Positions 11,981 to 62,570 of a stretch of DNA of 64,000 nucleotides are shown in pieces. The notes beneath the pieces are model-generated. The model did not search any database. It was not told the DNA's origin and worked only from the letters and a program-made list of their open reading frames with translations. Position 1 is the first letter of the stretch. Every line of letters starts with the position of its first letter. Source of the stretch: an uncultured delta proteobacterium (GTDB lineage Bacteria > Desulfobacterota > Binatia > UBA9968); NCBI GenBank assembly GCA_963816145.1, contig CAWFJP010000013.1, positions 1 to 64,000 of the forward strand, in the 5' to 3' direction. The position numbers and the translations under genes were made by a program.

Positions 11981-11984
11981 GGAC

Positions 11985-15418: not shown

Positions 15419-15687
15419 AATACTATTAACCAATCGAAGCGATGTATGGTTCGACAGACGATGGCGTAACACAGTGGCAAGCGAAAACAGCGGTACTCAT
15501 AGACGTGAAGAATAAGCCTGAGATGTCAGGCGACAGGCAGTCCGGAGCTATCTATTCAAATATTTCCAGTCGCTCAATCGTTCCTCCTAATGATATTAAA
15601 TTATACAGACAATTGCACGCTTCGAGAATTCTTTAAGCGTCAAAATACAAATTATGCGGTCGTGATGTGTTCGCTCGTGGGTGTGGG

Positions 15688-30970: not shown

Positions 30971-31005
30971 AATGGAGAATTGATAATTGAAAATGGAAAA
31001 TGAAA
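30971..31005. repeat. 7-mer tandem repeat x5 (same family as 22610)
   Basis: aatggag aattgat aattgaa aatggaa aatgaaa. Confidence 0.6.
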
Positions 31006-31026
31006 GAATTCTCCGGAGGAACAATA

Positions 31027-32559: not shown

Positions 32560-32617
32560 CGCACGTGGCTATTGGGTTGGAGAAAAATCCACGATCATTG
32601 GCAAAGGGGTATCATTT

Positions 32618-34150: not shown

Positions 34151-34189
34151 CGCCGTTGGTGTGACGCCTTGAAGCCAGGAGATTTAGCC

Positions 34190-39334: not shown

Positions 39335-39372
39335 AGTGTCCTCCTCTGATCGCCGCAATTGTTCCGGCTGGC

Positions 39373-40428: not shown

Positions 40429-40553
40429 AGGTGCACTCCCTCTCCGCCGAATTACGTGGCCGATGCTATGAGCGGTGTAGGATAATGTCAATTGAACGAT
40501 TCGGTCTCTGCCGATGGATTAGAATCGCGACTGACTCGGTTTTCGTAATTCTT

Positions 40554-43756: not shown

Positions 43757-43763
43757 TGGAAAT

Positions 43764-45104
43764 TTACACCGGCCGTGACTTCAGCGATTGGGTCAGGGAC
43801 CGGATCGAAGCCAGCGATTCGAGGGTCTTAACTTGATCAACGACTGCTGCGCCATTGGCCGTGTCGATAATGCCAAGGGTGGCTGCGCTGAATTTATCGG
43901 CGACGGCGTTCCAGCCGTGTAGATCGCTGGGCACCTGTAGCTTTTCTTCCAAGCGCGCGCCGTTTTTCAATTGCACTACTAATGCCGGCCCGCCCGGTGT
44001 ATGGTGCATACGCCCCATCAATTCTTGTACTACGGATTGTTGCACATTCGCGTCGATGAAGTCCTCAGGTTTTAACTCGCGGTGAACCAGCGCCATGGCG
44101 AGACAATAGGCCATGCTAAATCTGCCCTCGTAGCCGCGCTGGGGGATCTGGCGCACCAGAGGATAGGGCTTTTGATCGCATTCGATGGACTCTATGGATT
44201 CCGGCTTTAGGTCGTGTTGGCGCACGAGCCGTAACATCGCTTCTAACCCATTGTGAGTCGCCGTGCAGGATGCGTAGGGTTTGATGCGCAGCTCCTGGGC
44301 CAAATGGAAGTTGACACCAAGATCACGCGCCAGCGATGCGACGATCTCGTCGGGGATCGGACCCAACGCTTCGAGTAAACCGAAGGGGCCTTCGATCGCC
44401 GTGTCGTCGCTAGAAAAACCGCTCTGCGCCAACAGCGCGCAAGTCACACCGGTGGCGGCGGCGTGGCCGGTGCGAAACGGTTTGGCCATGGTGCCGCCGT
44501 CGCGGGTCAAGGCGCCGCAGGAGCCGGCCGCCAAGCCAATCGCCGCCAGGGTCTCGTGCGCCGATAAACTTAAGGCGTAGCTCGCCGAGCAGGCCGCGGC
44601 GATGGGACCGAGGATGCCGTTGGAGTGCCAGCCTTTAGCGCCGGGGCCGATGCCGTCGGAGCGCCGGCCGAACAATGCGTCGAGGCTGTTGCGCACTTCG
44701 CGGCCGACGATGAAGGCCGCGAGCATCTTGGCGCCGGAAAGATTCATCTGCTCGGTGACCGCCAAGGACGCCGCCAACGTGTAGGTGGTCGAATGATTGC
44801 GGTCGTCGTAGTCGAGCCCGTGGGCGAGGATGCCGTTGATGAGCGCGGCGTCGCGCTGGCTCACCGATTTGCCTGTGCCCCATATGGTGCAAGGACCGGC
44901 GCTGGTGTTGGCGCTAGCAAACTTCAACAAATTCGCGCCGACTTCCTGGCGGGTGGCGAGCATGGCGACGCCCAAGCAGTCGAGGATTGCCAGCTTGGCG
45001 TTCTCTAGCGCCTTGGCGGGCGCGGCTTGCAAAGAAAAAGTTACGGTGAAGTCGGCAAGCTTCTGTGAAAGTTTGTGCGCGCCGTTTCTCTTTTCTCCGG
45101 ACAT
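43764..45104 (-). CDS. MmgE/PrpD family protein
   Basis: ILDCLGV, AALINGILAHGLDYDD, GTMAKPF, IKPYASC, RFSMAY. Confidence 0.88.
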   Translation of the reverse strand: MSGEKRNGAHKLSQKLADFTVTFSLQAAPAKALENAKLAILDCLGVAMLATRQEVGANLLKFASANTSAGPCTIWGTGKSVSQRDAALINGILAHGLDYDDRNHSTTYTLAASLAVTEQMNLSGAKMLAAFIVGREVRNSLDALFGRRSDGIGPGAKGWHSNGILGPIAAACSASYALSLSAHETLAAIGLAAGSCGALTRDGGTMAKPFRTGHAAATGVTCALLAQSGFSSDDTAIEGPFGLLEALGPIPDEIVASLARDLGVNFHLAQELRIKPYASCTATHNGLEAMLRLVRQHDLKPESIESIECDQKPYPLVRQIPQRGYEGRFSMAYCLAMALVHRELKPEDFIDANVQQSVVQELMGRMHHTPGGPALVVQLKNGARLEEKLQVPSDLHGWNAVADKFSAATLGIIDTANGAAVVDQVKTLESLASIRSLTQSLKSRPV

Positions 45105-45125
45105 GACAACTCCTCAATTTTAACG

Positions 45126-46172
45126 TTAGTGGCCCTTGGCATACAGTGAGTCGATGAAACCGCTCTCGTCGAGCTTGCGGATGAAGCGGTTATCGATGAC
45201 ATCTTCAACCTTGGCGCTCATGACTTTGGGGTTGAGGGTCGCCATCATCCTTTGGATATTGCGCAAACTTTCAACGACGCCGTAGGGCTTCTTTTCAAAG
45301 CCGATCAACAGGTCTTGATAGCCGTCTTCCAGGATCGCCACGTCGTTGAACTTCATGTGGCGCATCATGGTTTGCATCACAAGGTTGCGGTTGGTTGGCG
45401 TGGTAACGACGGCTTGTGCCTCGAGCAGTGCCTTTAACACGCTTTCAACGACGCCAGGATTGTCGCGCAAGAAAGCGCCGTTGACCGCGAACGCGGTGCT
45501 CATGAAAGGAATTTTTGCGCGATAGAGTTCCGCCAGAATCGTCATGCCCTTGAGTTTGGTGCGGCGGCTGAGAAAAGGGTCGAGCAGTGTCGCGTCAATA
45601 TTGCCCGCTTCCACCGCTTGGGCGAGCAAGGTTTGATTGCCGATGCCGTTGATACGAATCTGGTCGCGGGTCGAGTCTAAACCCAAGTGCTCAAGGGTCA
45701 GATAGGCGGCCATCCAGGTGGTACCGCCGATGTTGGTGACGCCGAAGCGTTTGCCGCGCAAATCTTTTGCTTCTTTGATTTCCGGACGGACGACCAGATC
45801 ATAAGCGAGCCGGTTACCGGGCGCGGCGATGATTTTCAAATCCTGTCCGCTGGACACCGCCGAAAGCATCGGCGAGCCGCCGCTGCTGGCGAACTGAACT
45901 TCGCCCGTGGCCAGCGCGGTCATTTGCAATGGACTACTGCGCAGATAGATCACTTCCATCTCGATGCCATGCTTGGCAAACAGCCCCAGTTCCTGGGCGA
46001 TCCACAGCACGGTGGAGCGCGCACTCACCGCCGACTGACTAATGCGGACTTTGACGGTGTTTGGCTTGGCGGTCTTTTGCGGTGATTGCGCCGCGTACAG
46101 GTGAGCCGTTGGCCATAGCGCAATCAGCAGCAGCAAAACGAAATAATGAAGATTCTTCCTACGAGCACCCAT
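45126..46172 (-). CDS. ABC substrate-binding protein, NitT/TauT class
   Basis: DLRGKRFGVTNIGGTTW, RKLDESGFIDSLY. Confidence 0.85.
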   Translation of the reverse strand: MGARRKNLHYFVLLLLIALWPTAHLYAAQSPQKTAKPNTVKVRISQSAVSARSTVLWIAQELGLFAKHGIEMEVIYLRSSPLQMTALATGEVQFASSGGSPMLSAVSSGQDLKIIAAPGNRLAYDLVVRPEIKEAKDLRGKRFGVTNIGGTTWMAAYLTLEHLGLDSTRDQIRINGIGNQTLLAQAVEAGNIDATLLDPFLSRRTKLKGMTILAELYRAKIPFMSTAFAVNGAFLRDNPGVVESVLKALLEAQAVVTTPTNRNLVMQTMMRHMKFNDVAILEDGYQDLLIGFEKKPYGVVESLRNIQRMMATLNPKVMSAKVEDVIDNRFIRKLDESGFIDSLYAKGH

Positions 46173-46178
46173 TGACTG

Positions 46179-47225
46179 TCAGTTTCCTTTAGCAAAGAGA
46201 CTGTCGATATAACCGCTCTCATCGAGCTTACGAACGAAGCGACTTTCGATAATGTCCTCTGCTTTTACCCGCGTGACTTTCGGATTCAAGCCACCCATCA
46301 TGCGCTGAATATTGCGCAGTCCTTCAACGGAAGGATAGGGCTTCCTCTCGAAGCCGACGAGTATGTCATGGTAGCCCTCTTCTAGAACGGTCGGATCGGC
46401 GATCTTCATCTGGCCCGCCATGGTTTGCAGAACGAAATTTTTGTTGGCTGGAGCGGCAATGAAGCTTTGCGCCTCCAAGAGCGATTTCACAACACTTTCA
46501 ACAATCTCGGGGTGTTCCTTAAGATAAGCGCCGTTGGCGATGAGACTGGTGTTGATGAACGGGATTTTCGCACGGTGGAGTTCGATTAACACCGACAAGC
46601 CCTTTTGTTTGAGCCGCCGGCTGAGGAACGGATCGAGCAGCGTGGCGTCGATATTGCCGGCTTCCACCGCTTGGGCGAGGATCGTCTGGTTGCCGAGCGC
46701 ATTGATGCGGATCTGATCGCGCTGATGATCGAGACCTAGATGCTCCAACGCCAAAATGGCGGCCATCCAGGTGGTACCGCCGATGTTGGTGACGCCGAAG
46801 CGTTTGCCGCGCAGATCCCGCGCTTCTTTGATTTCCGGGCGAACCACCACATCGTAAGCCAGACGGTTACTCGGACTGGCGACGATCTTGAGATCCTGTC
46901 CACCGGAGACCGCCGATAGTACCGGCGCGCCGCCACTACTCGCGAATTGAACATCACCCGTGGCCATCGCAGCCATCTGTAAGTTGCTGCTGCGCAGGTA
47001 AATGGTTTCTACTTCAAGGCCATTTTTTGCAAAAAGACCCTGTCCTTGGGCGATCCAAAGCACTGCTGAACGAGTGTTAACCGCGGACTGACTGATGCGA
47101 ATTTTAACAAGGCCAGGTCTGGTGGTTTTGGGTGTAACTTGCGCTGCTTCTGCGAGGCAAGTGCTTAATAGCAACGTCAGCGGAATGATCGCGATACGTT
47201 GAAACATCTTCTGGACCCAATCCAA
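46179..47225 (-). CDS. ABC substrate-binding protein, NitT/TauT class (tandem paralog; start possibly 47207)
   Basis: DLRGKRFGVTNIGGTTW, RKLDESGYIDSLF. Confidence 0.85.
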   Translation of the reverse strand: MDWVQKMFQRIAIIPLTLLLSTCLAEAAQVTPKTTRPGLVKIRISQSAVNTRSAVLWIAQGQGLFAKNGLEVETIYLRSSNLQMAAMATGDVQFASSGGAPVLSAVSGGQDLKIVASPSNRLAYDVVVRPEIKEARDLRGKRFGVTNIGGTTWMAAILALEHLGLDHQRDQIRINALGNQTILAQAVEAGNIDATLLDPFLSRRLKQKGLSVLIELHRAKIPFINTSLIANGAYLKEHPEIVESVVKSLLEAQSFIAAPANKNFVLQTMAGQMKIADPTVLEEGYHDILVGFERKPYPSVEGLRNIQRMMGGLNPKVTRVKAEDIIESRFVRKLDESGYIDSLFAKGN

Positions 47226-47256
47226 TGTTGCTCTACAGCCGAAAAATGCCGGGTTA

Positions 47257-48324
47257 CTAGCGCTTGCTGATAAACAGCTTGCGTTTCAATCCTTCCCACT
47301 CGCCGAACTTCTTTTCCATCACGTCGGGAGGATATTTGCTTTCGATATAGAGTTTCTTGAATTTCATCTCAGGGTCGATGACGTCGTTGCGCGCGGAGCT
47401 AAGACCGCCTTTGACGACCGCCAGTTGTCCTTCTTTCGAGTGCAAGAAATCCAAAAATAATAGTCCGGCATGGAAGTGCGGTGCTTTGGCGACTAACCCC
47501 GACGTGCCGGTGGTGCCGATCACCGGATCGATCGGCTTCCACTCCACCGGCGCGCCTTTCTGTTTGGCGACGCTGATGTTGGAGTTAAAAATGGTCGGCG
47601 ACAATGGCACTTCCCCCGACACGACCAGCTCGGCGAGCGCCGCGCCGGAAATATTTTGCACGTTGATGTTCTGAGCCGCCATTTTTTCGAGAAATTCCAG
47701 ACCGAAAGTTTCGACGACGGCGCCGATCCATTGCGTTCCAGTCGTCGTCCCAGCGATCGACATCTTACCTTTCCATTTCGGGTCGAGGAGATCCTTCATG
47801 GATTTCGGCACATCAGCCGGCGCAATGATTTTGGTGTTGTAACCGACGCTGATGTAAAGTTCGCGGCTATTCCAGTAGAGCACGCCCGTTTTGCCTTTGA
47901 CTTTGACATCGTCGTCGTAGCGCGTGAATTCAGGCAGAAATACTTCCTGAAACATTCCCGTACCTTGCATGAGCGCCATGTATTCTGGGCCAGTCTCGAC
48001 GACATCGGCAATCTGCCGCCCCGCGCCGGCTTCTTCGGTCAACCGCTTGAGCAGTTCCTTGGAGTCGCTGCGGTAGACGTTGGCCTTCACGAACGGATAC
48101 TTCTTGCCGAATTCTTGGGTCACATGGCCGGCCATCCAGGTGTTGGACGTGTAAAAGGTCACCTGGCCTTCTTTCTTAGCGCCGTCAATGAGAATCTGTT
48201 CCCGGTCCTTGCCTTGGTAGAGCGCCAGCTCGGCCGGGCTCGTCGGCTTGTTTTGTGCGCCGTGCGATTGCGCCAACGGTAAACCGATGATTACCAATAG
48301 CGATGCAAGTAGCCTGTTTACCAT
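47257..48324 (-). CDS. ABC substrate-binding protein, AfuA-like class
   Basis: Start MVNRL after GAGGAGG; YQGKDREQILIDGAKKEG, PKWKGKM. Confidence 0.85.
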   Translation of the reverse strand: MVNRLLASLLVIIGLPLAQSHGAQNKPTSPAELALYQGKDREQILIDGAKKEGQVTFYTSNTWMAGHVTQEFGKKYPFVKANVYRSDSKELLKRLTEEAGAGRQIADVVETGPEYMALMQGTGMFQEVFLPEFTRYDDDVKVKGKTGVLYWNSRELYISVGYNTKIIAPADVPKSMKDLLDPKWKGKMSIAGTTTGTQWIGAVVETFGLEFLEKMAAQNINVQNISGAALAELVVSGEVPLSPTIFNSNISVAKQKGAPVEWKPIDPVIGTTGTSGLVAKAPHFHAGLLFLDFLHSKEGQLAVVKGGLSSARNDVIDPEMKFKKLYIESKYPPDVMEKKFGEWEGLKRKLFISKR

Positions 48325-48353
48325 GAAGCCTCCTCGGGGCTGTCGAATATCGA

Positions 48354-49529
48354 TCAATCGAAGTAGCCGTGTTTGTGCGCCCACAACCAGAGATAGGCGA
48401 TTTTTTCGTTGTAAAGCTCGGAATAGCCGACATGGCCATAGCGTGGGATTAGAATGACATGGGCGCCGCGTGTGGTTGCGGCATATTTCCTGCCCATGAA
48501 CATCTCGCGCTTGTTTTCCAACGGCGCGCCGCCGTTGACCCAGTGGCCTTTGTCGTTCTCGCCGGCGACCAGCAAGACACGAATCGATTTCAACCAATTC
48601 GCATCCGGTTCCTGTAAGTGGTCGAAGAATTCCTCACGCGGCAGTCCGGTGCGTTTGGGGTATTCCTCCAAGATTCCAACGGCCGCGTTGTGCTGGTTGT
48701 CGCACAAACTGGTTTTCATTTGGGAACGTAGCGGGCTGACCAGACGGATGTAATCGTCGGCGCCGCCCCAGGGCGTCAAATCTTCCGGATCGATGTAGCC
48801 AGAGTTCTTGAACGAGTCCGGCGAGCGCCGCGACACATGGTCTAGTGGAATCTCCCGATATTTTTCCGCGCCGGTCTGGTCGCGCCACTCCTTGCGCCAG
48901 CCGTCGGGACCGCCACTGCCAAAACCGACTAGACCGACGACTTTGGTTTTCTTGCTGAAACGTGTCAGGTGCGCGGCCATGGGACCGCCGGTGGAGTGGC
49001 CGAAAGCGATGATGTCACGCTCCGCCAGATGTTGGTCGGTAAGCGTACCGGCCCCATGGAGAATGACGTTGAAAGTGCATTTCAGGTTGCGGTCGGCAAT
49101 TTCCTCCTGACTCAGCTCTCGATCCAGGAGATAAATCGGCATGCGCTCGGGGATGGGAACTTTCCACACGCCTCCTGGCGGATAATGGCCCGGATAGGTG
49201 AGCGTGAGGACTTTGAATCCCTGGGCGGCCGCAACCCGAGCCAGACCCGGCCGTCCGTCGGGCGTCAAGTCCATGATCTTTTCACTGCCCGCACCGCCAT
49301 GAAAAAACACCAAGGCGCGGCGCGGATCGGTTTCCTGCTCCGGCGTGTAAAGCGTGCCGTGCATGTCCCAGTCGTAACCGTTGCGTTGAAAACGAGCGGT
49401 TACATCGGTGCTGGTGAACTTTCTGTCAGCGTAGGGCGGCGCGATGGCCAGCCATTCGTCCCAAGTGAACTTCAACAACAGCTCGTTGGATTTCAATCCC
49501 TCTAAGTATTTTTCAGTCGCGCTACCCAT
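48354..49529 (-). CDS. alpha/beta-hydrolase-fold protein of unknown function
   Basis: FFHGGAGS, GHSTGG nucleophile elbow, AGEND, YGHVG. Confidence 0.7.
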   Translation of the reverse strand: MGSATEKYLEGLKSNELLLKFTWDEWLAIAPPYADRKFTSTDVTARFQRNGYDWDMHGTLYTPEQETDPRRALVFFHGGAGSEKIMDLTPDGRPGLARVAAAQGFKVLTLTYPGHYPPGGVWKVPIPERMPIYLLDRELSQEEIADRNLKCTFNVILHGAGTLTDQHLAERDIIAFGHSTGGPMAAHLTRFSKKTKVVGLVGFGSGGPDGWRKEWRDQTGAEKYREIPLDHVSRRSPDSFKNSGYIDPEDLTPWGGADDYIRLVSPLRSQMKTSLCDNQHNAAVGILEEYPKRTGLPREEFFDHLQEPDANWLKSIRVLLVAGENDKGHWVNGGAPLENKREMFMGRKYAATTRGAHVILIPRYGHVGYSELYNEKIAYLWLWAHKHGYFD

Positions 49530-49543
49530 GACCGTGTCTCCGC

Positions 49544-50377
49544 TTACGATTTGCTCGCGTATGTATCGAGGTAATATTTGGCGATCTCACCTTTGGTGGC
49601 GAACCAAACATCGGGAAAGCCTTTGGCGTAGCGAATGCATTCTTCCCATACTCCGATCAAATGCGGCCGGCCGCCGATATGGGCGTGGACCAGGCAGTCG
49701 ATCAATTTGGGCGCGCCCGCTTGGCCCTCGGCGTACAAGCAGTCGAAGGCGGCTTTGAAACTGTCAAAATAAACCCGTGGCGGATTCTTGGGTGTGAAGA
49801 TTCCCGAGAGATCATTGGCGTAATCGAGCCGCGGCATGATGATCAATGGCTTGCCATGGACCATGCGAAACTGCGGGATGTCGGGTCCAGGCAAGTCGCC
49901 GGTCCAGAAAATGCCTTCATCGACAAAGTTTCCGAAGGTGTATTCGTTGATCCGATGGCCGGGGCTGACCCAGCCGACCGGCCGTTTACCGGTCACCGAT
50001 GCGATGGCGTCGAGTGTGCGTTTGATCAAAGCTCGTTCACTGGCGGCATTTTCGACGTCCGACAGCGCCTGATCGTTGGCCCAGCCATGTCCGACGATTT
50101 CATGGCCGCCGGCATGAAGTTCTTTCAAGGCGTCGGGAAAATCTTCGGCGATGCGGCCGTTGGTGTCGATGGTGCCTTTGACGCCATTGCGGGCAAAGAC
50201 ATCCATGATGCGCCAGATGCCGGCCTTGCCGCCGTATTCACCGTAGGCGAGCGATGCATAATCCGGCTTAGCCTCGCTGCGGCGATATTGCGAAGATTTT
50301 TCAAAGGCCTCGAAGGCGACGAAGAAGCTGACGGCGATCTTGGCATTATTGGGCCACTTGATGGGAGAGAGTCTCAT
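49544..50377 (-). CDS. polysaccharide deacetylase / PuuE-like (CE4) protein
   Basis: KWPNNAKIAVSF, EYGGKAGIWRI, HEIVGHGW, GWVSPG, HAHIGGRP, DVWFAT. Confidence 0.88.
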   Translation of the reverse strand: MRLSPIKWPNNAKIAVSFFVAFEAFEKSSQYRRSEAKPDYASLAYGEYGGKAGIWRIMDVFARNGVKGTIDTNGRIAEDFPDALKELHAGGHEIVGHGWANDQALSDVENAASERALIKRTLDAIASVTGKRPVGWVSPGHRINEYTFGNFVDEGIFWTGDLPGPDIPQFRMVHGKPLIIMPRLDYANDLSGIFTPKNPPRVYFDSFKAAFDCLYAEGQAGAPKLIDCLVHAHIGGRPHLIGVWEECIRYAKGFPDVWFATKGEIAKYYLDTYASKS

Positions 50378-50387
50378 GATCGATTCC

Positions 50388-51401
50388 TTATTGTTTGGGC
50401 GCGCCGAAAATGTTGCGAAACTGCTCGTAGCTCTTGTTGAAATCGTCGCCGGCGCTGAACTCATCGATGACGAAATTCAATTTGTCCAATCCCTGCACGT
50501 TGGTCGGCACGGCGCGGCGAGTGGGCACGCGGCCGAACGAGGCGATGATTCTTTGTCCGTCCTCGGACAACATGAAATCGACAAACAGCTTGGCGGCGTT
50601 GGGATGGGGCGCTTTGGCGGCGACGCCGATCGGTTGAAATTTGGTGAAGACCGGCTCTTGCGCCACCCAGTCCACCGGCGCGCCTTTACGTTTTGCGTCC
50701 TCGGCGTTGTGAATATAGGTGTTGAGCACCAGCGGAAACTCACCGGCGGCAAGCAGCCCGGTGATGATCGTCAGCCCTGAAAAGAGGCGAAACTCCTGAG
50801 CGCCGAGCCGCTTCATGTAGCCCAGCCCTTTTTCCTGGCCGAGCCGTTTGAGCTTCCAAGAAAACCACTCAGGTTTGGTGCCGTCCATGGCGATCTTGCC
50901 GCGCCATTTAGGGTTCAGCAGATCGTCGTCAGTAACCGGCACTTCGCTGCGCTTCACCATCCGGGTGTTGTAAGCGATGACGTTCGGCATCATATAGATC
51001 GCCGCCCAATATCCGTCGGCGTCGAAGAAGCCTTTTTGCAACTGTTTGGTCTCGGGTGAATGATATTTTGCCAGTAGGTTTCGCTTCTTCAAAAAATAGG
51101 CTTGGGTCTCGGCTGACTGGACGACATCGAAGTCGAACCGGCCGGCTTGAGTCTCGGTCATGATCTTGGTGAGCAACCGTTCGCCGACGGCGCGAAACAT
51201 TTGAACCTGCAGGAAAGGGTACTTGGCGCGAAAGGCATCGTTGAGTTTTTGCGCCTGGTCGACGGTCATCGATGTGTAGAGGACGAGAGAACCTTCTTTT
51301 TTGGCACCTTCGATGAGTGATTCATGGTCATTGGCAATAGCCGGTGTTGTGACTAAAAGACCCAATAACACCGAGAGCGCTAGGCTGGTGGTTCTGTGCA
51401 T
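50388..51401 (-). CDS. ABC substrate-binding protein, AfuA-like class
   Basis: AKKEGSLVLYTS, PKWRGKI, APHPNAAKLFVDFMLS. Confidence 0.85.
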   Translation of the reverse strand: MHRTTSLALSVLLGLLVTTPAIANDHESLIEGAKKEGSLVLYTSMTVDQAQKLNDAFRAKYPFLQVQMFRAVGERLLTKIMTETQAGRFDFDVVQSAETQAYFLKKRNLLAKYHSPETKQLQKGFFDADGYWAAIYMMPNVIAYNTRMVKRSEVPVTDDDLLNPKWRGKIAMDGTKPEWFSWKLKRLGQEKGLGYMKRLGAQEFRLFSGLTIITGLLAAGEFPLVLNTYIHNAEDAKRKGAPVDWVAQEPVFTKFQPIGVAAKAPHPNAAKLFVDFMLSEDGQRIIASFGRVPTRRAVPTNVQGLDKLNFVIDEFSAGDDFNKSYEQFRNIFGAPKQ

Positions 51402-51494
51402 GGTTCTTTCTCCCATTGAAACTCGTGCCGGATACTATCAAGGCGACGACGAGAGGGTCAACCGCGTTGCCCAGGGAGTTACTTCGCAAGAAAT

Positions 51495-51525
51495 AAAAAA
51501 GGGACACCCATGGGCATCCCTTTTG
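51495..51525 (-). terminator. intrinsic terminator after the NuoF-like gene
   Basis: Minus strand aaaagggatgcccatgggtgtccctttttt. Confidence 0.75.
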
Positions 51526-51548
51526 TTACCGAATTCAATTCTTAACCG

Positions 51549-52799
51549 TTACGCCCTAGCCAGCAGCGCCTGGAAGTCTTCGGGGAAAAGCTTGAGGGCG
51601 CTTTCAATCGGTGGACCCGGCATGGCGATCAGGTTGCAGAACCCTTTGCCTTTGTTGAAGGCGAGCAGTTTGCCGAACTGTTCGAGCATGGCAGCATTGC
51701 CTTGCCTTTGCTGAACTCTTTTCATCAGCATCGCAAGGCTCTTGGTCTCCATCTGACACGCCGGACATTGGCCGCAAGACTCGGTGGCGAAAAATTCGGT
51801 GATGCGCACTAGCTCATCGACAATGGAATCACCCTCGCGGACGATATGGACGACACCGCAGCCAAGCATGGAGCCGGCTTCGCGCATGGCGTTGGGTTCC
51901 AGCGGTGTATCGATCTTGTCCGCGGGCAGGTAGGCGGACGACGGCGAACCCGGCATGATCGCCTTGATCTTTTTGCCATCCTTCAGGCCGCCGCCGCATT
52001 CTTCAATCAGATGGCGCAGCGGTGTGCCGAAGGGGAGCTCATAGATGCCGGGACGTTTGACGTCCTCGGTTTCGTTGAGTGAGAACAGCATGGTGCCGGG
52101 ACAATCTTTGGTGCCGAAGCCGCGGTACCAATCGGCGCCCTTAAACAAGATGCGCGGCACGTTGGTTAGGGTCTCGACGTTGTTTACCGAGGTCGGTTTG
52201 CCGAACAGGCCGACGGTGACGGGAAACGGCGGTTTTTGCCGTGGCAGCGGCTTCTTGCCTTCGATGACTTCGAGCACCGCGGTGTCTTCGCCGGCGACAT
52301 AGTTATGCGGCGCGGCGATGATCTCGATGTCGAGGTCGTAGCTGCCGCCAAGAATTTTTTGACCCCAGTAACCGGCCGCTTTGGCTTCGCGCAAAGCATC
52401 ATTGACGCTTTGGATCGCCGTTTCGTACTTCGCGTTGATGTAAAGATAGGCTTTGGCTGCGCCGATGGCGTAGGAGCCGAGCACTGTGCCTTCGATGACT
52501 AAATGCGGCAAGTTCTCCAGCAGCACCCGGTCCTTTCGGCTGCCCGGTTCGTCTTCGCCGCCATTCATCACCAAATAATGCGGCTGCTCAGGAGCCTCGC
52601 GGGTGAACTGCCATTTTTTCCCCGTGGGAAAGCCCGCGCCGCCATGGCCGCGCAATCCTGCGTCAGAAATAACCTGAATGACGTCCTCAGGGGTTACCTG
52701 AAGCGCTTTGGCTAGCGCTTCATAACCGCCGCGGGCCTGATACTCTTTCAGTCCTTCGCGGCCTTCTACCACGCCCTTGGGGAAAAGGATGCCGTCCAT
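51549..52799 (-). CDS. stand-alone NuoF-like FMN/[4Fe-4S] NAD(P)H dehydrogenase subunit
   Basis: GLRGHGGAGFPTGKKW, NGGEDEPGSRKDR, YVAGEDTA, PRQKPPFP, NNVET, ESCGQCPAC...GFC. Confidence 0.92.
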   Translation of the reverse strand: MDGILFPKGVVEGREGLKEYQARGGYEALAKALQVTPEDVIQVISDAGLRGHGGAGFPTGKKWQFTREAPEQPHYLVMNGGEDEPGSRKDRVLLENLPHLVIEGTVLGSYAIGAAKAYLYINAKYETAIQSVNDALREAKAAGYWGQKILGGSYDLDIEIIAAPHNYVAGEDTAVLEVIEGKKPLPRQKPPFPVTVGLFGKPTSVNNVETLTNVPRILFKGADWYRGFGTKDCPGTMLFSLNETEDVKRPGIYELPFGTPLRHLIEECGGGLKDGKKIKAIMPGSPSSAYLPADKIDTPLEPNAMREAGSMLGCGVVHIVREGDSIVDELVRITEFFATESCGQCPACQMETKSLAMLMKRVQQRQGNAAMLEQFGKLLAFNKGKGFCNLIAMPGPPIESALKLFPEDFQALLARA

Positions 52800-52803
52800 C
52801 GGC

Positions 52804-53133
52804 TTAGAAAACCCCCGTATCGAGTAGTTGGTAGATCAATTCCTTCAAAGACGAATCGATGGTGTCCAAGCGCTGCACATGGGGACCGCCGGCGAGGTGC
52901 GCGACGATGTCGTCGAGATCTTCGCTTTTGACATGAGCATACCAGTTCTTTTCAGGATAAATGACCACGTTGGGCCCTTCTTGGCAGGCACCAAAACACA
53001 TGTACGGTTTGACATCGACATCGGTCAGCCCTTTGGCGGTAATTTTTTGTTGCAACTCCACCGCCAACTGCTCCGACCCCCGGGCCTTGCAATCGATATT
53101 CTGACAAACGAGACAGCTTTGACTCACGGGCAT
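52804..53133 (-). CDS. thioredoxin-like [2Fe-2S] ferredoxin (NuoE C-terminal domain-like)
   Basis: CQNIDC...CFGACQEGPNVVIYP..WY. Confidence 0.9.
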   Translation of the reverse strand: MPVSQSCLVCQNIDCKARGSEQLAVELQQKITAKGLTDVDVKPYMCFGACQEGPNVVIYPEKNWYAHVKSEDLDDIVAHLAGGPHVQRLDTIDSSLKELIYQLLDTGVF

Positions 53134-53190
53134 CTCCTTCGGTCCTACTTACTAATGCTCGATTCGATATGCAACAGCTGAATTTGAAAC

Positions 53191-54297
53191 TCAATTCAAT
53201 TGCATTTGCGAGACCCAGTCTTTGCCCTTGATGATATCGGCGAGGATTTTTTCGTCTTCGGCATTCGGAAGCGCGTCATAGAGGTGCTTCTGATAGTCTT
53301 CTGCGCTGAGCAGCTCGCCGGTAACGCTATAGGTCTTGCCGACATGTTCGCCGATGGAGCGGTTGAATTTTAAGTCGGGCGCCTTCAGCTTGGTCTCTCC
53401 GTCCGGCACCAGTTGATTGAGCTGGTCGATCAATTGCTGCGATTCTTTCATGTAATGTTCGCGGGCGACATCGTTGAGCTTGTCTTTCTCCGCCGGCACG
53501 GTCGCGCTGTGTTCGTCGTAGCGGCCTTTGATGCCCCAGGTGTAGGCCCAGTGGGCCGACGATGAGTGGTCCGTGCCGAAAAGATCGTAAGCGGTGGAAA
53601 GCCACTTGTTAAAATATTTCTGCACGATCGGCACGGGAATTTTTTTGGCCCTGAGCACCCGAGTCAGCCCGGTGTGTCCGGTGAACATATGAAAATGCTC
53701 TTCTTTGAGCATCGCCGTGACGCTTTCGGCGAGCGGGGCGAAGGACGAGTGGCTCAGCATGGTTAACTGATATTTGCCGTCGCGATCGACGAATTCCGTG
53801 TAGGTGAAAAAGTCGAGCCAGTTGTTCACCGGCGCGTTGAACGAGCCGAGCAGCCGGTCGCCCCGAAAGGCGCGGCGTTCGAGCATTTTGCGCGCTTCAA
53901 GCTTGCCGGAATCGCCGAAGTAGTTCACCAGCAGGTAACACATCTGCCAGCCATGGCGCATTTCTTCGCTGTTGACCCGAGTCAGAGCTTTACGGTCGTA
54001 TTCGGTGGGCGCAGTATCGAGGAGGTTTTTTTGCTGCTCGACGGAAGCGAATTCGGTATCGCCCTGGTAGACTATGAGATTCATCAAGGCATCGCGAATC
54101 GATTGATTGGGGATTTGGCCAACTCGCTGCCATTTCTGCTGGCCTTTGAAATCGCCAAACTCGATCTCGGGGGAATGGAGCTCGCCCAGTTTGGTTTCGA
54201 ACTTATAGCCGTCGAGCAGTGCCGCATCGTAGCCGATGTCTTTTTGCCACTGATGGAAATAGTCGATCCAGTCATCGAAAGTTGAGATTTTGATCAT
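53191..54297 (-). CDS. boxB: BoxB-like (PaaA/PaaC superfamily) diiron aryl-CoA epoxidase subunit, short form (368 aa)
   Basis: QGDTEFASVEQQ, VNSEEMRHGWQM, DRDGKYQL, MLKEEHFHMFTG match recalled BoxB diiron motifs (QGDTEPASVEQQ, EEGRH, DRDGK, EEAHH). Confidence 0.8.
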   Translation of the reverse strand: MIKISTFDDWIDYFHQWQKDIGYDAALLDGYKFETKLGELHSPEIEFGDFKGQQKWQRVGQIPNQSIRDALMNLIVYQGDTEFASVEQQKNLLDTAPTEYDRKALTRVNSEEMRHGWQMCYLLVNYFGDSGKLEARKMLERRAFRGDRLLGSFNAPVNNWLDFFTYTEFVDRDGKYQLTMLSHSSFAPLAESVTAMLKEEHFHMFTGHTGLTRVLRAKKIPVPIVQKYFNKWLSTAYDLFGTDHSSSAHWAYTWGIKGRYDEHSATVPAEKDKLNDVAREHYMKESQQLIDQLNQLVPDGETKLKAPDLKFNRSIGEHVGKTYSVTGELLSAEDYQKHLYDALPNAEDEKILADIIKGKDWVSQMQLN

Positions 54298-54319
54298 GGA
54301 GGGTCCTTTCAATAGGGCA

Positions 54320-54337
54320 TTCGAACGATCGTTCGAA
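54320..54337. promoter_or_regulatory. perfect 18-bp palindromic operator, PaaR(TetR)-type
   Basis: TTCGAACGATCGTTCGAA contains CNAACGNNCGTTNG and overlaps the predicted transcription start. Confidence 0.75.
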
Positions 54338-54340
54338 AGA

Positions 54341-54369
54341 TTTATAGCGGGTTGCCGGGAGGAAATCAA
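54341..54369 (-). promoter_or_regulatory. sigma70 promoter of the boxB-like operon
   Basis: Minus strand TTGATT-17 nt-TATAAA. Confidence 0.65.
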
Positions 54370-54423
54370 CTGCCCGGCGGCGTTCGGACGGAGGTGGGCT
54401 CTAGGCGCGCGGCGGTTCTCCGC

Positions 54424-56823
54424 CTAGCGATACATTTCCAACAGCTCGACCATTTCCAGCTGGCGAATTTGCTCAAACAGATAGCGCTTGATTTCGCCGA
54501 CGGTATCCATGCCAAGGACGATCTGCGCCGTCGCTTGGGCGGACTGATAACTGATGGACCGAATGGCCTTTTTAATCACGGGAAGATACAGCGCGCCCAT
54601 GCTGAACTCTTCTAAGCCCATGCCGAGGAGCACCAAGGCGCACAGCGGGTCACCGGCCATCTCACCGCACATGCTGACGCGTTTGCCAACTTTCTTGCCA
54701 GCAGCGATGGTTGTGTTGAGTGCGGAAAGAACGGCTGGATGCAGCGGTTCATAAAGATTGGCGACTTTGCGGTTACTACGGTCGACGGCCAGGAGGTACT
54801 GGATGAGATCGTTGGTGCCAATACTTAAAAAGTCGACTTCACGCAGAAACCGATCTGCCAATTGCACCGCGGCCGGCACCTCAACCATGATGCCGAGCTC
54901 CATCTGCCGGTCGTAGGGGGCGCCTTCGCGTTCCAATTCAGCTTTGGCCTCGGTTAGCAGGTCTTTGACTTTTTGAATCTCTTCGAGACTGGAAATCATC
55001 GGCACGAGCATGCGCACCAGCCCGAGATCGCCGACGCGTAGAATAGCCCGCAACTGGGTTTTGAAAATTTCTTCAACTTCTAGCGAGATGCGGATCGAGC
55101 GCCAACCCAAAAAGGGATTGGGCTCGGTAGCGACATTGCGCATGTAGGTTGGATATTTGTCGGCGCCGATATCGAGCGTGCGAATGGTGACCGGCTTATT
55201 CATCATGCCTTCGACGACGCGCTTATAAAGCGCGTATTGCTCTTCTTCACTGGGGAAATCACGGTGCGATAAAAAGGGGATCTCGGTGCGGTATAGGCCG
55301 ATGCCCTGGGCGCCATGGAAATGCGCGAAGGCGACATCGCTTAATAGCCCGACGTTGGCGTAGAGCGAGACGCGGTGGCCGTCAGTCGTTTGCGCGGGAA
55401 GATCTTTAAGTTCGCCGAGTTCACGATTGAGATCCGCGTAATCGCGTTCCAAACGATCGTATTCGCGGATCACCTCGGCGTTTGGGTTGACGTGCACGCT
55501 GCCGGCGTTGCCGTCGACGATCAGTAAATCGCCCTGGTGGACCTTTTCCATCAGATCTTCGACCGCAACGATGCTGGGAATCTCAAATGACTTGGCCAAT
55601 ATCGAGGCATGGGAGGTGACGCCGCCGGTGGCTAGGACAATACCCTTAAACTTGTCGCCTTCGAGCATGCTCAAGTCGGCGGGTGAAAGATCCTGCGCCA
55701 CCAAAATAGCGTCGTCCGGCACATCGTAGGGTTGCCCGTCGCCGCCGGAAAGTGTTTCTAACAACCGCTGCGCGGCGTCTTTGACGTCGGAGGTCCGTTC
55801 GCGCAGGTAGCTATTGTCGATCTTGGCGATGGATTCCATGTAACGTTCGAAGACCACCCGGACGGCATATTCCGCGACATAGCTGCCTTTGCGAATCTGT
55901 TGTTCGATCTGGTGAATGATCTGCGGATCCTCGAAAATCAGCCGATAGACGTCGAATATCGCACCTTCCTCGGCGGAAATCAGGCTGCTCATGCGCCGCT
56001 TGACGACGTCGATCTGGTCGATGCCGCGCTCCACCGCGCCGCGAAAGCGCTCGATCTCATGCCGGGGATTGCGCGATTTTTTCTTCTTGATCGCGTTCAG
56101 TTCCATGCGCGGCTCAAGGACAAAGGCTCGCCCGCGGCCAAAGCCCGGCGATGCCGCCAGGCCGGTCACGCGCCCGCGCCATCTCTGTTTGACCTTTGTC
56201 GTTGGTTCCGGCGGAGCGCCTTCATAGGAGCGCAGCTTGCGCATCGCCTCGTTCATGCGCTTCTGATATTCCTTGCGCTCCTCTTCCTTGGAGCGCAGGT
56301 TGTCGGTGAGCCGGGCCTGGAGGATGATACTGGCCGCCTGGCCCGAGATCGTCGTCAATAGGCGAATCTCATCACGGGAAAACTCGCGCCGGCGGGAAGT
56401 TTGCACCACAAGCACGCCGAGCGGCGTTTTCTTATCGAACAGCGGTACGCCGAGGAACGAGTGGAAATGCTCTTCGTGGGTTTCAGGAAAGTATTTGTAG
56501 CGCTTGTGTGCCAGGGCATCGACGACCATCACCGGCTTCATTTGCTCGATGACTAGACCGGTCAAACCTTCGCTGGTGCCCATGGATACTCTACCGACCG
56601 ACTCGGGATCGAGTCCCATGGTCGCGCAAAGGGTCAGGCGATTCTTCTTGGCATCGAAGATATACAGCGAGCACACTTCAGTCTGCATCCGTTCGGCAAC
56701 CGTGGCGACCAGCCGGTCTAAGGTTTCTTGCAGGTCGTGCGAATGGCTTATCAGTGTGCTGATGTCCGCGAGTATACCCAGGTGGGGGTGGGTAGTGCGG
56801 GCGATCTTGGTGTTTTTTGCCAT
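54424..56823 (-). CDS. ptsP: phosphoenolpyruvate-protein phosphotransferase EI(Ntr) with GAF domain
   Basis: N-terminal GAF (VCSLY...EGLTG...SFLGVPL), TSHASIL phospho-His, GIGLYRTE, RTLDIGADK, EPNPFLGWR, SIGTNDL, MCGEMAGD. Confidence 0.95.
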   Translation of the reverse strand: MAKNTKIARTTHPHLGILADISTLISHSHDLQETLDRLVATVAERMQTEVCSLYIFDAKKNRLTLCATMGLDPESVGRVSMGTSEGLTGLVIEQMKPVMVVDALAHKRYKYFPETHEEHFHSFLGVPLFDKKTPLGVLVVQTSRRREFSRDEIRLLTTISGQAASIILQARLTDNLRSKEEERKEYQKRMNEAMRKLRSYEGAPPEPTTKVKQRWRGRVTGLAASPGFGRGRAFVLEPRMELNAIKKKKSRNPRHEIERFRGAVERGIDQIDVVKRRMSSLISAEEGAIFDVYRLIFEDPQIIHQIEQQIRKGSYVAEYAVRVVFERYMESIAKIDNSYLRERTSDVKDAAQRLLETLSGGDGQPYDVPDDAILVAQDLSPADLSMLEGDKFKGIVLATGGVTSHASILAKSFEIPSIVAVEDLMEKVHQGDLLIVDGNAGSVHVNPNAEVIREYDRLERDYADLNRELGELKDLPAQTTDGHRVSLYANVGLLSDVAFAHFHGAQGIGLYRTEIPFLSHRDFPSEEEQYALYKRVVEGMMNKPVTIRTLDIGADKYPTYMRNVATEPNPFLGWRSIRISLEVEEIFKTQLRAILRVGDLGLVRMLVPMISSLEEIQKVKDLLTEAKAELEREGAPYDRQMELGIMVEVPAAVQLADRFLREVDFLSIGTNDLIQYLLAVDRSNRKVANLYEPLHPAVLSALNTTIAAGKKVGKRVSMCGEMAGDPLCALVLLGMGLEEFSMGALYLPVIKKAIRSISYQSAQATAQIVLGMDTVGEIKRYLFEQIRQLEMVELLEMYR

Positions 56824-60908: not shown

Positions 60909-62570
60909 TTAGTCGCGCTCGAAGTCACCGTCTTTTAGCGCCGCGCCTTTGACCCACCAGATCTCGTCCATGCGCTCGTAGGTCTCGGTGCTGGTGAGGG
61001 CGCCGCGGAACTGATCTTTGATGATATTCAGTTGCAACCTGTCGGCGACAGGGATGGTCGGCAGATCGCGCATTAAAACATCTTGAACCTCATAGTAGGC
61101 TTTGACCATGTCGGGTTTCTTGGTCGCCGCCACCGCTTGGTCGAACAGCTGGTCGACCTTGGGATTACTGTAGCGCGTGAAGTTGGTGAAGGGCTGGCCG
61201 GTGATCGACGAGGTCGCATACAACCGCGCGGTGCCCAGGGCGGGATGGCCGCGGGTGGTGAGCGGGCCAAACCACAGATCGAAGTCGTATTTCTGAAAAA
61301 TCTTTTCCAACATCACCGAGCGCTCGAGCCGTTCAAGTTTAATGTCGATGCCGGCAGCCTTTAATTGCTCGCGCAAAATCTGCACCGGCCTCTCAGCGTT
61401 ATCGTTGCCCGCTTCAAAACTAAGCTTGAGAGCGAAACGTGTGCCGCCGGCGCCTCTCGGATGGCCCGCTTCATCGAGCAGGGCGTTGGCCTTTTTCAAA
61501 TCGAAGGGATACTTGGGCACGTTGGCGTTATAAGCCCAGGGGATGCCCGGCGGGATCACGCTGTCGATGACCTTGCCGACGCCGCGCAAGCCCTTTTCCA
61601 CCACGAATTTCTTGTCGATGGCATGGGCGATGGCGACGCGAACTTCTTTCTTGGCTAAAATCGGATCGCCTTTTAAATTAAAATTCACGCCGATCAGCGA
61701 CGGCGAGCCGATGTCTTTGATGACGGCGTTTTTCAGTTTCCTGAGCCGGTCGACATGCTGATACGGAAAAGAATTGCTCGCGAAGATCGCATTGATCTCG
61801 CCGGTCTCAAACGCGATGGCGCGAGTGGCCGGGTTGGGAATGATGCGATAAATCACGCTGTCCAAGAACGGCCGGCCTTTCTTGAAATAATTTTCATTGC
61901 GCACCAGCGTAATGTGGCTGCCTTTGTTCCATTCCTTAAATTTAAACGGCCCGCTGCCGATGGGCTGGTCATTGTTGCGTGGATTTTTAAACACGTCGCC
62001 GCCTTCGTAGATATGCTTGGGCATGATGCAGCCGTCGTGGGCGGTGAGGATTTCAAGAAATGGCGAATAAACTTTTTTGAGACTAACCTTCACCGTGGTC
62101 GCGTTGGGGGTCTCGATGGCTTTGATGTTACGGTACGCTTCGCGGCCGCGCGCGTTGTATTTGCCGACGAGGTTCTCGAAGCTGAATTTTACGTCGGCCG
62201 AGGTGAGCGGCTGGCCATCGTGCCATTTGACGTTGTCGCGCAGCTGAAAGGTGTAGACCAAGCCGTCCGGGGAAATGTCCCATGACTGGGCCAAGTCGGG
62301 ATGAGGATTCGATTCCTCATCCATGTGCAGCAAGCCGTTGTAAATGTTGGACGTTACCATGGCGACGATCTGGCTGCTCTCGATGCCGCAGTTGAGCGTC
62401 GACGGATCGGCGGCCATGCCCAGGATCAAGGTGCCGCCCCGGCGCGGGTTGCCTTCGACCGGACCCGCCGACGCGACGCCGTGGACGACGGCGAGCAACA
62501 GCGCCAAGAAACCAGCGAGCAATGAGTAGCGTCGTTTTTCCGGCAATTTTATGTTCATTAAAATTTCCAT
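60909..62570 (-). CDS. family 5 ABC substrate-binding protein
   Basis: RGGTL, LAQSW, LRDNVKWHDG, IGSGPFKF. Confidence 0.9.
   Translation of the reverse strand: MEILMNIKLPEKRRYSLLAGFLALLLAVVHGVASAGPVEGNPRRGGTLILGMAADPSTLNCGIESSQIVAMVTSNIYNGLLHMDEESNPHPDLAQSWDISPDGLVYTFQLRDNVKWHDGQPLTSADVKFSFENLVGKYNARGREAYRNIKAIETPNATTVKVSLKKVYSPFLEILTAHDGCIMPKHIYEGGDVFKNPRNNDQPIGSGPFKFKEWNKGSHITLVRNENYFKKGRPFLDSVIYRIIPNPATRAIAFETGEINAIFASNSFPYQHVDRLRKLKNAVIKDIGSPSLIGVNFNLKGDPILAKKEVRVAIAHAIDKKFVVEKGLRGVGKVIDSVIPPGIPWAYNANVPKYPFDLKKANALLDEAGHPRGAGGTRFALKLSFEAGNDNAERPVQILREQLKAAGIDIKLERLERSVMLEKIFQKYDFDLWFGPLTTRGHPALGTARLYATSSITGQPFTNFTRYSNPKVDQLFDQAVAATKKPDMVKAYYEVQDVLMRDLPTIPVADRLQLNIIKDQFRGALTSTETYERMDEIWWVKGAALKDGDFERD

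Follow-up and report, generated by a model that had tools for sequence, protein, structure and literature searches.

A predicted three-component aryl-CoA ring oxygenase with a NuoF-like reductase module, encoded by a conserved operon of an uncultured Binatia bacterium

The 64,000-nucleotide stretch of DNA analyzed here (the window: positions 1 to 64,000 of the forward strand of contig CAWFJP010000013.1, NCBI GenBank assembly GCA_963816145.1) comes from an uncultured soil bacterium, a delta proteobacterium (GTDB lineage Desulfobacterota; Binatia; UBA9968) and contains a short operon of three genes, encoding a BoxB-like diiron protein, a small thioredoxin-like [2Fe-2S] ferredoxin and a stand-alone NuoF-like flavoprotein. 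It is probable that the three proteins form an O2-dependent ring oxygenase for aryl-CoA thioesters, predicted to be a likely epoxidase of benzoyl-CoA or a close analogue. With somewhat less assurance, but still on balance in favor, the two redox proteins are predicted to constitute a minimal complex I N-module, made up of a NuoF-type protein and a tailed NuoE cluster domain, which would be a new class of reductase for an O2-activating diiron oxygenase. Electrons would leave such a module through the NuoE-type [2Fe-2S] cluster, which in complex I is a side branch, and the helix added to the ferredoxin is predicted to be a docking helix.

How would such an enzyme operate? The scheme that we infer comprises the electron path, the use of NAD(P)H, the substrate, the effector and the outlying regulator and ring-opening enzymes. 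NAD(P)H would reduce the FMN of the NuoF-like protein, and the FMN would pass electrons on to the [4Fe-4S] cluster of this protein, held by C342/C345/C348/C388, from which they would reach the ferredoxin's [2Fe-2S] cluster (C10/C15/C46/C50) and then the diiron center of the BoxB-like protein (E82, E112, H115, D171, E200, H203), which would activate O2 and oxygenate the aromatic ring of the CoA thioester. Expression from a sigma-70-type promoter would be repressed by a PaaR-like TetR protein, encoded elsewhere, on a palindrome over the transcription start, and the acyl-CoA substrate would release this repressor. The ring-opening enzymes would also be encoded elsewhere in the genome.

The oxygenase passes the gathering threshold of the PaaA_PaaC family (PF05138, 47.2 bits against 28.5 bits, residues 88-324 of the 392-residue open reading frame (ORF) as listed) and fails the BoxB equivalog TIGR03225 (241 bits against a cut-off of 499.1), which it matches in two stretches, the best covering profile positions 84-322 of 471. 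Its best match in the Protein Data Bank (PDB) is BoxB (3per, E = 1.4e-50, residues 42-264), followed by a Sulfolobus protein (4mud, E = 5e-20) and then by PaaA (E about 1e-7). The AlphaFold model, built on an alignment of 47 sequences, has a mean predicted local distance difference test score (pLDDT) of 94.6, and Foldseek superimposes it over the whole length on BoxB (3q1g, 3pm5) with template modeling (TM) scores of 0.89 by query length and 0.70 by target length at 29-30% identity, the TM score against PaaA being about 0.55. Both ExxH motifs are kept (E112/H115 and E200/H203), in agreement with an earlier sequence-only reading of this DNA, which had described two EExH-type motifs in the diiron protein. 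The six iron ligands named above correspond to E120, E150, H153, D211, E240 and H243 of BoxB and, like Q78 and F153, do not vary in any of the 47 aligned sequences. The diiron ligands of BoxB and seven second-shell residues of its benzoyl pocket (Gln116, Thr119, Ser123, Phe193, Phe203, Phe206 and Thr210) are listed in a published account (PMC5489048); five of the seven are identical in the protein studied here (Q78, T81, S85, F153 and F163), Phe206 being replaced by Y166 and Thr210 by V170. Among the relatives introduced below, Y166 is found in 12/12 aligned rows of the nearest group (clade A) and 23/26 rows of a more distant group (clade B), compared with F in 4/4 rows of long BoxB, and position 170 is V or I across the short family (V170 fixed in 12/12 clade-A rows) compared with T (3/4) or M (1/4) in long BoxB.

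With 368 residues the protein is considerably shorter than full-length BoxB (about 470 residues), and because of this length and of the score under the equivalog cut-off it is not BoxB proper. Judged from its sequence it is a compact BoxB relative with a near-identical active site that belongs to a distinct, short sister family and is not a BoxB orthologue; the BoxB-like label of the sequence-only reading thus holds for the fold and all six ligands and does not extend to BoxB itself. With Tyr166 and Val170 in its pocket, the enzyme may act on another substrate than BoxB or with another regiochemistry. Neither a BoxA partner nor a clustering with boxC or boxD was found in the window or in the 16 clade-A loci. 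A 367-residue relative with 33% identity (P0165) has lost the ExxH iron ligands and resembles the inactive PaaC partner of PaaA.

The NuoF-like protein has the complete set of NuoF domains (PF01512, 145.9 bits; the SLBB domain PF10531, 34.6 bits; PF10589, 57.7 bits) and aligns end-to-end with NfnB, Nqo1, Aquifex NuoF and HydB at 300-335 bits, its best PDB matches being NfnB (9n5u, 335 bits), Nqo1 (2fug, 331 bits) and Aquifex NuoF (324 bits). Nevertheless, it fails all three NuoF equivalogs (TIGR01959, 410.3 against 558.65 bits; NF008436, 333 against 749 bits; NF010120, 317.2 against 389 bits). All four [4Fe-4S] cysteines that had been assigned earlier are present, in the pattern CxxCxxC...C, and the FMN/NADH elements retained in the alignment with Nqo1 include NNVET, KPPFP, GxGGAGFPTG and KW.F. 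Three loops had been described as altered, GHGGAG (residues 51-56), NGGEDEPGSRKDR (79-91) and YVAGEDTA (167-174). YVAGEDTA occurs in 134/134 members of the NuoF-like family and so does NGGE(D/V)EPG, the full 13-residue loop at 79-91 being variable at one or two positions, and to this extent the description stands. GHGGAG, in contrast, is found in 40 of the 134 members, the canonical GRGGAG in 91, and 3 fall outside the loop pattern; being a minority variant, GHGGAG is not a family trait. Neighbors typical of nuo operons (or of hox, fds or hyd; NuoE, NuoG) do not accompany the NuoF-like gene in the window or in any of the 16 clade-A loci.

The ferredoxin matches PF01257 (35.6 bits, cut-off 24.8) over profile positions 68-144 of 145 only and scores well below all NuoE cut-offs (TIGR01958, 35.6 against 142.4 bits). 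It lacks the N-terminal half of NuoE and consists of the C-terminal cluster-binding part with an added tail. The four cluster cysteines, arranged as C-x4-C ... C-x3-C, are invariant in 19/19 ferredoxin sequences, and a C-terminal LIYxLLDxG tail is conserved as well, also in two ferredoxins of clade B (L026 and L040). In the structural model (pLDDT 88.9) a beta-alpha-beta thioredoxin-like core is followed by a C-terminal helix formed by residues 94-105.

Relatives were collected in a scan of one genome per species that yielded at least 590 related loci, and the locus counts given in this text refer to the best 80, all of which are from metagenome-assembled genomes. A large protein collection contains 4690 matches to the oxygenase, of which the best 120 are 82-96% identical and almost all 368 residues long, and a protein library at 50% identity contains 970 representatives with E <=0.001. 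Searching the 80 loci with the proteins of the window by tblastn separated them into two clean groups, clade A (L001-L016, 70-91% identity) and clade B (L017-L080, 56-64% identity). The ferredoxin gene lies directly downstream of the oxygenase gene in all 16 clade-A loci and is followed by the NuoF-like gene in 15 of them; in the sixteenth (L014) the contig ends 23 nt past the ferredoxin gene. A quick tree (89 rows) unites clade A on a single branch (SH-aLRT support 98); only L016 was dropped from it, because the oxygenase gene of this locus, the closest among the genomes (L016:8001-9105), is split over two frames encoding residues 1-267 and 267-368, through what looks like a frameshift or an error of assembly. 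A careful tree of 51 rows, which comprise the window, 15 clade-A sequences, 30 of the 64 clade-B sequences hand-picked across subclades, two short representatives and three long BoxB types, with four long-branch rows excluded, supports clade A with 100/99 and recovers it as a single branch in 100% of the bootstrap trees. Clade A is nested within the short family, and the short family is set apart from long BoxB. The conserved gene order that the sequence-only reading had named as its first check is therefore found throughout one well-supported clade, as far as the contigs reach.

The surroundings of the three genes are less constant. The gene ptsP lies upstream in 11/16 clade-A loci, as it does in the window, with a flank identity of 69-82%; in L012-L015 its place is taken by a TctC-like gene in divergent orientation, beyond which lies a gene for a Tct-type transporter, and a convergent aat gene lies downstream in these four loci and also in L007, L009 and L011. 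Comparison of L012-L015 with the ptsP-bearing loci thus indicates that the three-gene core persists where the flanks differ. The eleven genomes with the common ptsP flank suggest that most clade-A genomes probably represent one Binatia-like lineage; the labels given to clade-A genomes are Binatia, 'Deltaproteobacteria', Thermodesulfobacteriota, one Udaeobacter and one Eisenbacteria, and some of them may be binning errors. In clade B a related ferredoxin was detected only in L026 (downstream, same strand), L040 (upstream, opposite strand) and L077 (weak), and those of L026 and L040 are of the same tailed type, with the C-terminal helix motif, and have no NuoF-like gene nearby. Since the same tailed ferredoxin thus stands beside two oxygenases without NuoF, the ferredoxin appears to be the likelier direct partner of the oxygenase.

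To which kind of pathway does the short family belong? ORFs were called in the 80 loci and clustered, and representatives were named by Pfam and NCBIfam. One to three enoyl-CoA hydratase genes are present in 31/64 clade-B loci, and the hydratase adjoining the oxygenase has its best match in PaaG (230.6 bits, cut-off 345) and also matches the 'alternative oxepin-CoA hydrolase' (210 bits, cut-off 300). Moreover, clade-B loci contain a TetR gene in 24 cases (by tblastn), an aldehyde dehydrogenase gene in 9 and a 3-hydroxyacyl-CoA dehydrogenase gene in 9, and genes for a thiolase, an AMP-ligase and a CoA-transferase in one to three loci each. By their labels, the genomes with such contexts are Acidobacteriota, Gemmatimonadota, Armatimonadota, Planctomycetota and Binatia. 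Taken together, such neighbors assign the short family to pathways that, like Box and Paa, oxidize the rings of CoA thioesters. A BoxC equivalog was not found beside the oxygenase in any of the relatives examined, and other clade-B contexts are uninformative, being plain housekeeping (MutY-like, rhodanese, ArsC/Spx-like, LytB). Among proteins longer than 645 residues there was no fusion of the oxygenase with NuoF or with the ferredoxin. In three such proteins a BoxB-like domain is fused with an enoyl-CoA hydratase or an aldehyde dehydrogenase, and since each is a single sequence, and one of the fused domains is partial in two (P0391, P0392), they may be artefacts of gene calling. Apparent fusions of about 745 residues between BoxB-like and MutY proteins were dismissed as frame artefacts, the long ORF in L044, the one checked, beginning out of frame with the oxygenase.

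Some neighbors of clade-B oxygenases deserve mention in their own right. In one Acidobacteriota subclade (L024, L025, L027, L032, L033, L035, L036, L042, L044, L045, L048, L053, L062) a MutY-like gene (HhH-GPD and NUDIX_4 domains) directly follows the oxygenase gene in 8 loci. A protein of the UDG/Mug superfamily (170-180 residues, PF03167; TIGR00584 at 111.8 against 402.6 bits) is encoded in the TetR-headed gene run of 12 clade-B loci, including L039, L043, L051, L059, L066, L068, L070-L072 and L079 (e.g., L070:6540-7070), and its gene mostly lies between two enoyl-CoA hydratase genes (e.g., in L039, L066 and L070), which is an odd site for a DNA glycosylase fold. In L037, a Binatia genome, the oxygenase gene is followed by a second ferritin-like gene of PaaA/PaaC type (4950-5750, 266 residues, 76 bits with the PaaA model), the product of which may be a structural subunit.

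The control region of the operon is conserved, too. In 15/15 aligned clade-A upstream regions, at a mean column identity of 44%, the core of the palindrome is invariant or nearly so, TTGA of the -35 hexamer is invariant and a TA-rich -10 element follows at equal distance, the palindrome core and the TTGA columns being the only invariant ones. Exceptions are L011, which is cut inside the site, and L008 and L010, which differ at one base. The inner part of the palindrome, CGAACGATCGTTCG at 54322-54335, agrees at every base with the pseudopalindrome CNAACGNNCGTTNG, the consensus of Sakamoto et al. for PaaR of Thermus thermophilus, as quoted in a later paper (PMC6651687). According to the same paper, PaaR is a TetR repressor heading paaR-paaABCD, with phenylacetyl-CoA as effector to judge by the title of the study of Sakamoto and colleagues (PMC6651687). 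Many clade-B loci have a single copy of the core CGAACGNNCGTTCG, placed where the TetR gene at the head of the operon begins. If at most two mismatches of twelve are allowed and the range runs from about 200 nt ahead of the called start of the TetR gene to 60 nt within it, 21 of the 24 clade-B loci with a TetR gene have the site there. The background in all loci is 0.036 per 260 nt, and in L072 an exact site lies just beyond the counting range. Since no homologue of the clade-B TetR protein was detected by tblastn in the window or in the clade-A loci, the predicted regulator of clade A would have to be encoded elsewhere. The TetR protein of the relatives has its best PDB matches in 5k7f and 3vpr, both listed as 'TetR family', which we take to be acyl-CoA-sensing regulators.

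Several observations weigh against the proposed oxygenase and its electron supply. All 16 clade-A loci come from uncultured genomes, and as 11 of them share the upstream ptsP, part of the clade-A synteny reflects close kinship. Within 8 kb, a NuoF-like gene was found in 0/64 clade-B loci, from which it follows that the family does not require an adjacent reductase; it can use a non-adjacent or general donor, and adjacency alone is no proof of a role of NuoF. The proposal of the sequence-only reading that NuoF and ferredoxin act as the reductase is backed by the linkage in the closest loci (15/16 and 16/16, respectively) and finds no counterpart among the distant relatives. Nor was an FNR- or BoxA-type reductase found among 80 further same-strand neighbors of clade-B oxygenases within 2.5 kb. 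In complex I the NuoE-type cluster lies off the main exit path of the electrons, and the FMN/NADH loops of the NuoF-like protein are unlike those of Nqo1 (N-G-G-E versus N-A-D-E and Y-V-A-G-E-D versus Y-I-C-G-E-E). The palindrome also fits the Gram-positive/actinobacterial LexA box CGAAC-N4-GTTCG. Finally, neither the 64-kb window nor the 16 clade-A loci contain genes for a CoA ligase, a ring-opening hydratase, an aldehyde dehydrogenase or a TetR regulator, so that the operon, which had been called self-contained, is not so as a pathway, and BoxB is stated in a review to need BoxC against product inhibition (PMC4498308).

Could the same redox chain serve a different chemistry? An acyl-CoA substrate of another kind (substituted, heteroaromatic or non-aromatic) or another reaction (hydroxylation or, in reverse, epoxide deoxygenation) is unlikely, yet deserves to be taken seriously. 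The score under the BoxB cut-off would be in keeping with it, as would Y166 and V/I170, which are found family-wide where long BoxB has F and T/M, and the hydratases of the relatives, which stay under the cut-offs and match PaaG or generic enoyl-CoA hydratases best, with no BoxC equivalog adjacent. In addition, according to the BoxB account (PMC5489048), the peptide Thr210-Asp211 determines regio- and stereoselectivity, and a deoxygenation activity of BoxB has been considered. On the other hand, the counterpart of Gln116, which forms a hydrogen bond to the thioester of benzoyl-CoA, and two ring-packing Phe residues are invariant or nearly so, and the PaaG-like isomerase, aldehyde dehydrogenase, 3-hydroxyacyl-CoA dehydrogenase and thiolase of the relatives suit a route via epoxide and ring opening. 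It could also be imagined that the oxygenase receives its electrons from a reductase of BoxA or PaaE type, or from a general ferredoxin, with a gene elsewhere in the genome, and that the co-transcribed pair has another job, for example as a diaphorase. The 64 clade-B relatives without an adjacent NuoF-like gene would agree with such an arrangement, and BoxA is described in the review as acting catalytically and transiently, which makes adjacency unnecessary (PMC4498308). It is nevertheless improbable, as the order and spacing of the three genes are kept in 15/16 clade-A loci despite changing flanks, one promoter/operator lies ahead of and one terminator behind the whole set, and no other conserved candidate client enzyme adjoins the pair.

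A shade less probable still is that the palindrome is an SOS (LexA) box and that the operon is induced by damage or stress instead of being a substrate-induced catabolic unit. Genes of DNA-repair type among the neighbors in relatives, Mug/UDG-like in 12 loci and MutY-like in 8, would fit such a function, but the adjacency to MutY is restricted to one subclade of close relatives. Moreover, the position of the site at the start of the TetR gene in 21/24 TetR-bearing relatives is as for an autoregulated TetR operator, the PaaR consensus is fitted base for base, and there is one exact site per locus and none at recA, lexA or uvr in the DNA examined. Scarcely credible, finally, is the view that the ferredoxin gene and its NuoF-like neighbor are surplus or displaced components of complex I or of the diaphorase module of a hydrogenase or formate dehydrogenase. 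It would agree with the automatic annotation as 'NADH-quinone oxidoreductase subunit F' and with the NuoF Pfam domains; against it stand the failure of all three NuoF equivalogs, the truncation of the ferredoxin with respect to NuoE, the family-specific loops, which are fixed in 134/134 sequences, and the absence, from the window and the 16 loci alike, of further genes for Nuo subunits, hydrogenases or formate dehydrogenases.

How does the predicted three-component oxygenase compare with known systems? With BoxAB, the benzoyl-CoA 2,3-epoxidase of Azoarcus evansii (3PER, 3PM5, 3Q1G), it shares the fold, the six iron ligands and 5/7 pocket residues. In both the oxygenase is a single subunit, and electrons come from a distinct iron-sulfur flavoprotein, a role that is predicted here for the NuoF-like protein. 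It differs from BoxB in being about 100 residues shorter and in having Tyr for Phe206 and Val for Thr210. According to the review (PMC4498308), BoxA contains FAD and two [4Fe-4S] clusters and PaaE is an FNR-type class IA FAD/[2Fe-2S] reductase. BoxA uses NADPH. Here, in contrast to BoxA, a NuoF-type FMN/[4Fe-4S] protein and a separate [2Fe-2S] ferredoxin are encoded, with no boxC or boxD alongside, and NuoF is unrelated to BoxA and to PaaE. With the phenylacetyl-CoA 1,2-epoxidases PaaABC(D)E of E. coli and Thermus thermophilus the operon has in common PF05138, the logic of CoA-thioester epoxidation and the operator fit to the PaaR consensus, and the clade-B relatives are TetR-headed like paaR-paaABCD. 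PaaA is a distant match only, however, and the operon lacks the partners PaaB, PaaC and PaaD. A further short, uncharacterized member of the BoxB/PaaA superfamily is the SSO1313-type protein of Sulfolobus solfataricus (4MUD, 'ring oxidation complex/phenylacetic acid degradation-like'; TM score 0.51 by query and 0.83 by target), which has 235 residues, comprises the core bundle only and is far more distant than BoxB.

NuoE/NuoF-type modules are known from complex I, hydrogenases, formate dehydrogenases and NfnABC/HydABC, where they serve as NADH input or output modules. The NuoF-like protein shares with the complex I N-module and with NfnABC/HydABC the FMN domain, the SLBB domain and the [4Fe-4S] motif, and the ferredoxin is of NuoE type. 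Unlike in the complex I N-module, the NuoF-like protein stands alone, with no NuoG-like partner, and the ferredoxin consists of the NuoE cluster domain and a new C-terminal helix; unlike in the other offshoots of the N-module, the proposed client is an O2-activating diiron enzyme. A literature search, weak in that subscription journals were thinly covered, found no precedent for a NuoF-type reductase with a BoxB-like or other diiron aryl-CoA oxygenase, which agrees with the earlier remark that the arrangement is unfamiliar from characterized systems. The operon pairs an oxygenase of familiar type with a predicted reductase module that is not on record for such enzymes, and its lineage has been recovered solely in the form of uncultured environmental genomes.

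The aerobic 'hybrid' routes of benzoate and phenylacetate degradation are entered by way of diiron aryl-CoA epoxidases. If the proposed assignment is true, the NuoF-type reductase would be a third, unrelated solution beside PaaE and BoxA, the reductases of the two characterized epoxidases, and the borrowing of the NADH-input module of complex I would extend from anaerobic redox enzymes to an oxygenase. The short BoxB-like family has many members, and to know which substrate it uses and where its electrons come from would bear on the turnover of aromatic carbon. An NADH-driven epoxidase made of three proteins, with a single-subunit oxygenase, could serve as a simple biocatalyst, and the conserved operator offers a way to trace the regulator along with the other members of the regulon.

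The features of the operon are compiled in Table 1. The promoter, operator, three closely spaced genes and terminator of the sequence-only reading were all recovered, with genes, promoter and terminator on the minus strand. The three ORFs are co-directional and lie within 51497-54369, with intergenic gaps of 57 nt between oxygenase and ferredoxin genes and of 4 nt between ferredoxin and NuoF-like genes. As listed, the oxygenase ORF spans 53191-54369 (392 residues), but its TTG start coincides with the beginning of the -35 hexamer. Translation more likely begins at the ATG at 54297, which follows AAAGGA and gives 368 residues, as in nearly all of the 120 best homologues. For the ferredoxin, GTG 53127 seems the likelier start, as GGAG lies six bases upstream and the N-terminal length agrees with that of the orthologues. 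The promoter was read from the sequence; the consensus scan requires T at position 6 of the -10 element and for this reason does not list the TTGATT/TATAAA pair. The terminator hairpin is part of a fold of -23.5 kcal/mol in the 90 nt past the NuoF-like stop codon and is not conserved in the clade, a hairpin with T-run being found 3' of the NuoF-like gene in some clade-A loci only. The GC content of the operon is 0.556-0.557, within a whole-window range of 0.49-0.60. A search of 51300-54500 with Rfam gave nothing credible, the sole weak match being sraL (20.2 bits against a threshold of 39).

Table 1. Positions of the genes and signals of the operon within the window
Feature	Position	Strand	Remarks
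BoxB-like diiron aryl-CoA oxygenase gene (predicted)	53191-54297	-	368 aa from ATG 54297
Thioredoxin-like [2Fe-2S] ferredoxin gene (NuoE C-terminal-domain type)	52804-53133	-	109 aa (ATG 53133) or 107 aa (GTG 53127)
Stand-alone NuoF-like FMN/[4Fe-4S] flavoprotein gene	51549-52799	-	416 aa
Promoter	54341-54369	-	-35 TTGATT (54369-54364), 17-nt spacer, -10 TATAAA (54346-54341); read from sequence
Operator	54320-54337		Perfect 18-bp palindrome TTCGAACGATCGTTCGAA, just 3' of -10; 9+9 nt, 100% complementary
Intrinsic terminator	51497-51524	-	12-pair stem, 4-nt loop, T-run; hairpin scan and fold

The domain scan of the window covered 53 ORFs, namely the 51 longest non-overlapping ones of 82 ORFs of at least 150 residues and two shorter ones. 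Complex1, PaaA/BoxB, enoyl-CoA hydratase and FNR-type domains are absent from the 50 scanned ORFs outside the operon, which bears out the earlier statement that the window holds no further nuo, boxA, boxC or paa gene. Directly upstream of the operon lies ptsP (54424-56823), encoding the GAF-domain enzyme I of the nitrogen phosphotransferase system (NF008283, 617.5 bits, cut-off 583), and its adjacency probably reflects descent and not function. In the clade-A loci with the other upstream flank (L012-L015), which form the deeper branch of the clade, the divergent TctC-like gene and the transporter gene further upstream, a TctA/TctB fusion in L013 and L015, are a possible uptake system for the substrate acid (e.g., in the stretches L012:6754-7854 and L015:4560-6584).

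Elsewhere in the window, an IS110-family transposase gene (10644-12173) lies by genes for a TPR protein and an 806-residue Schlafen-group-3-like helicase (13052-15472), and since the GC content drops to 0.49-0.53 the region 10644-15472 may be a mobile or defense islet. The window is unusually rich in genes for solute-binding proteins (SBP_bac_5, 6 and 8, NMT1-like), many without adjacent permease genes; examples of these and other genes are found at 3096-4229, 8405-9400, 25504-26574, 31000-35725, 38255-40491, 42737-48597, 50388-51416 and 60909-62570. It also encodes several amidohydrolases, two pairs of E1 alpha/beta dehydrogenase subunits and two MmgE/PrpD proteins. Downstream of the operon, genes for a polysaccharide-deacetylase/PuuE-like protein and an alpha/beta-hydrolase (48354-50464) are syntenic in the four closest loci, L001, L003, L004 and L016, and the terminator together with a promoter-like site (51461-51432) divides them from the operon.

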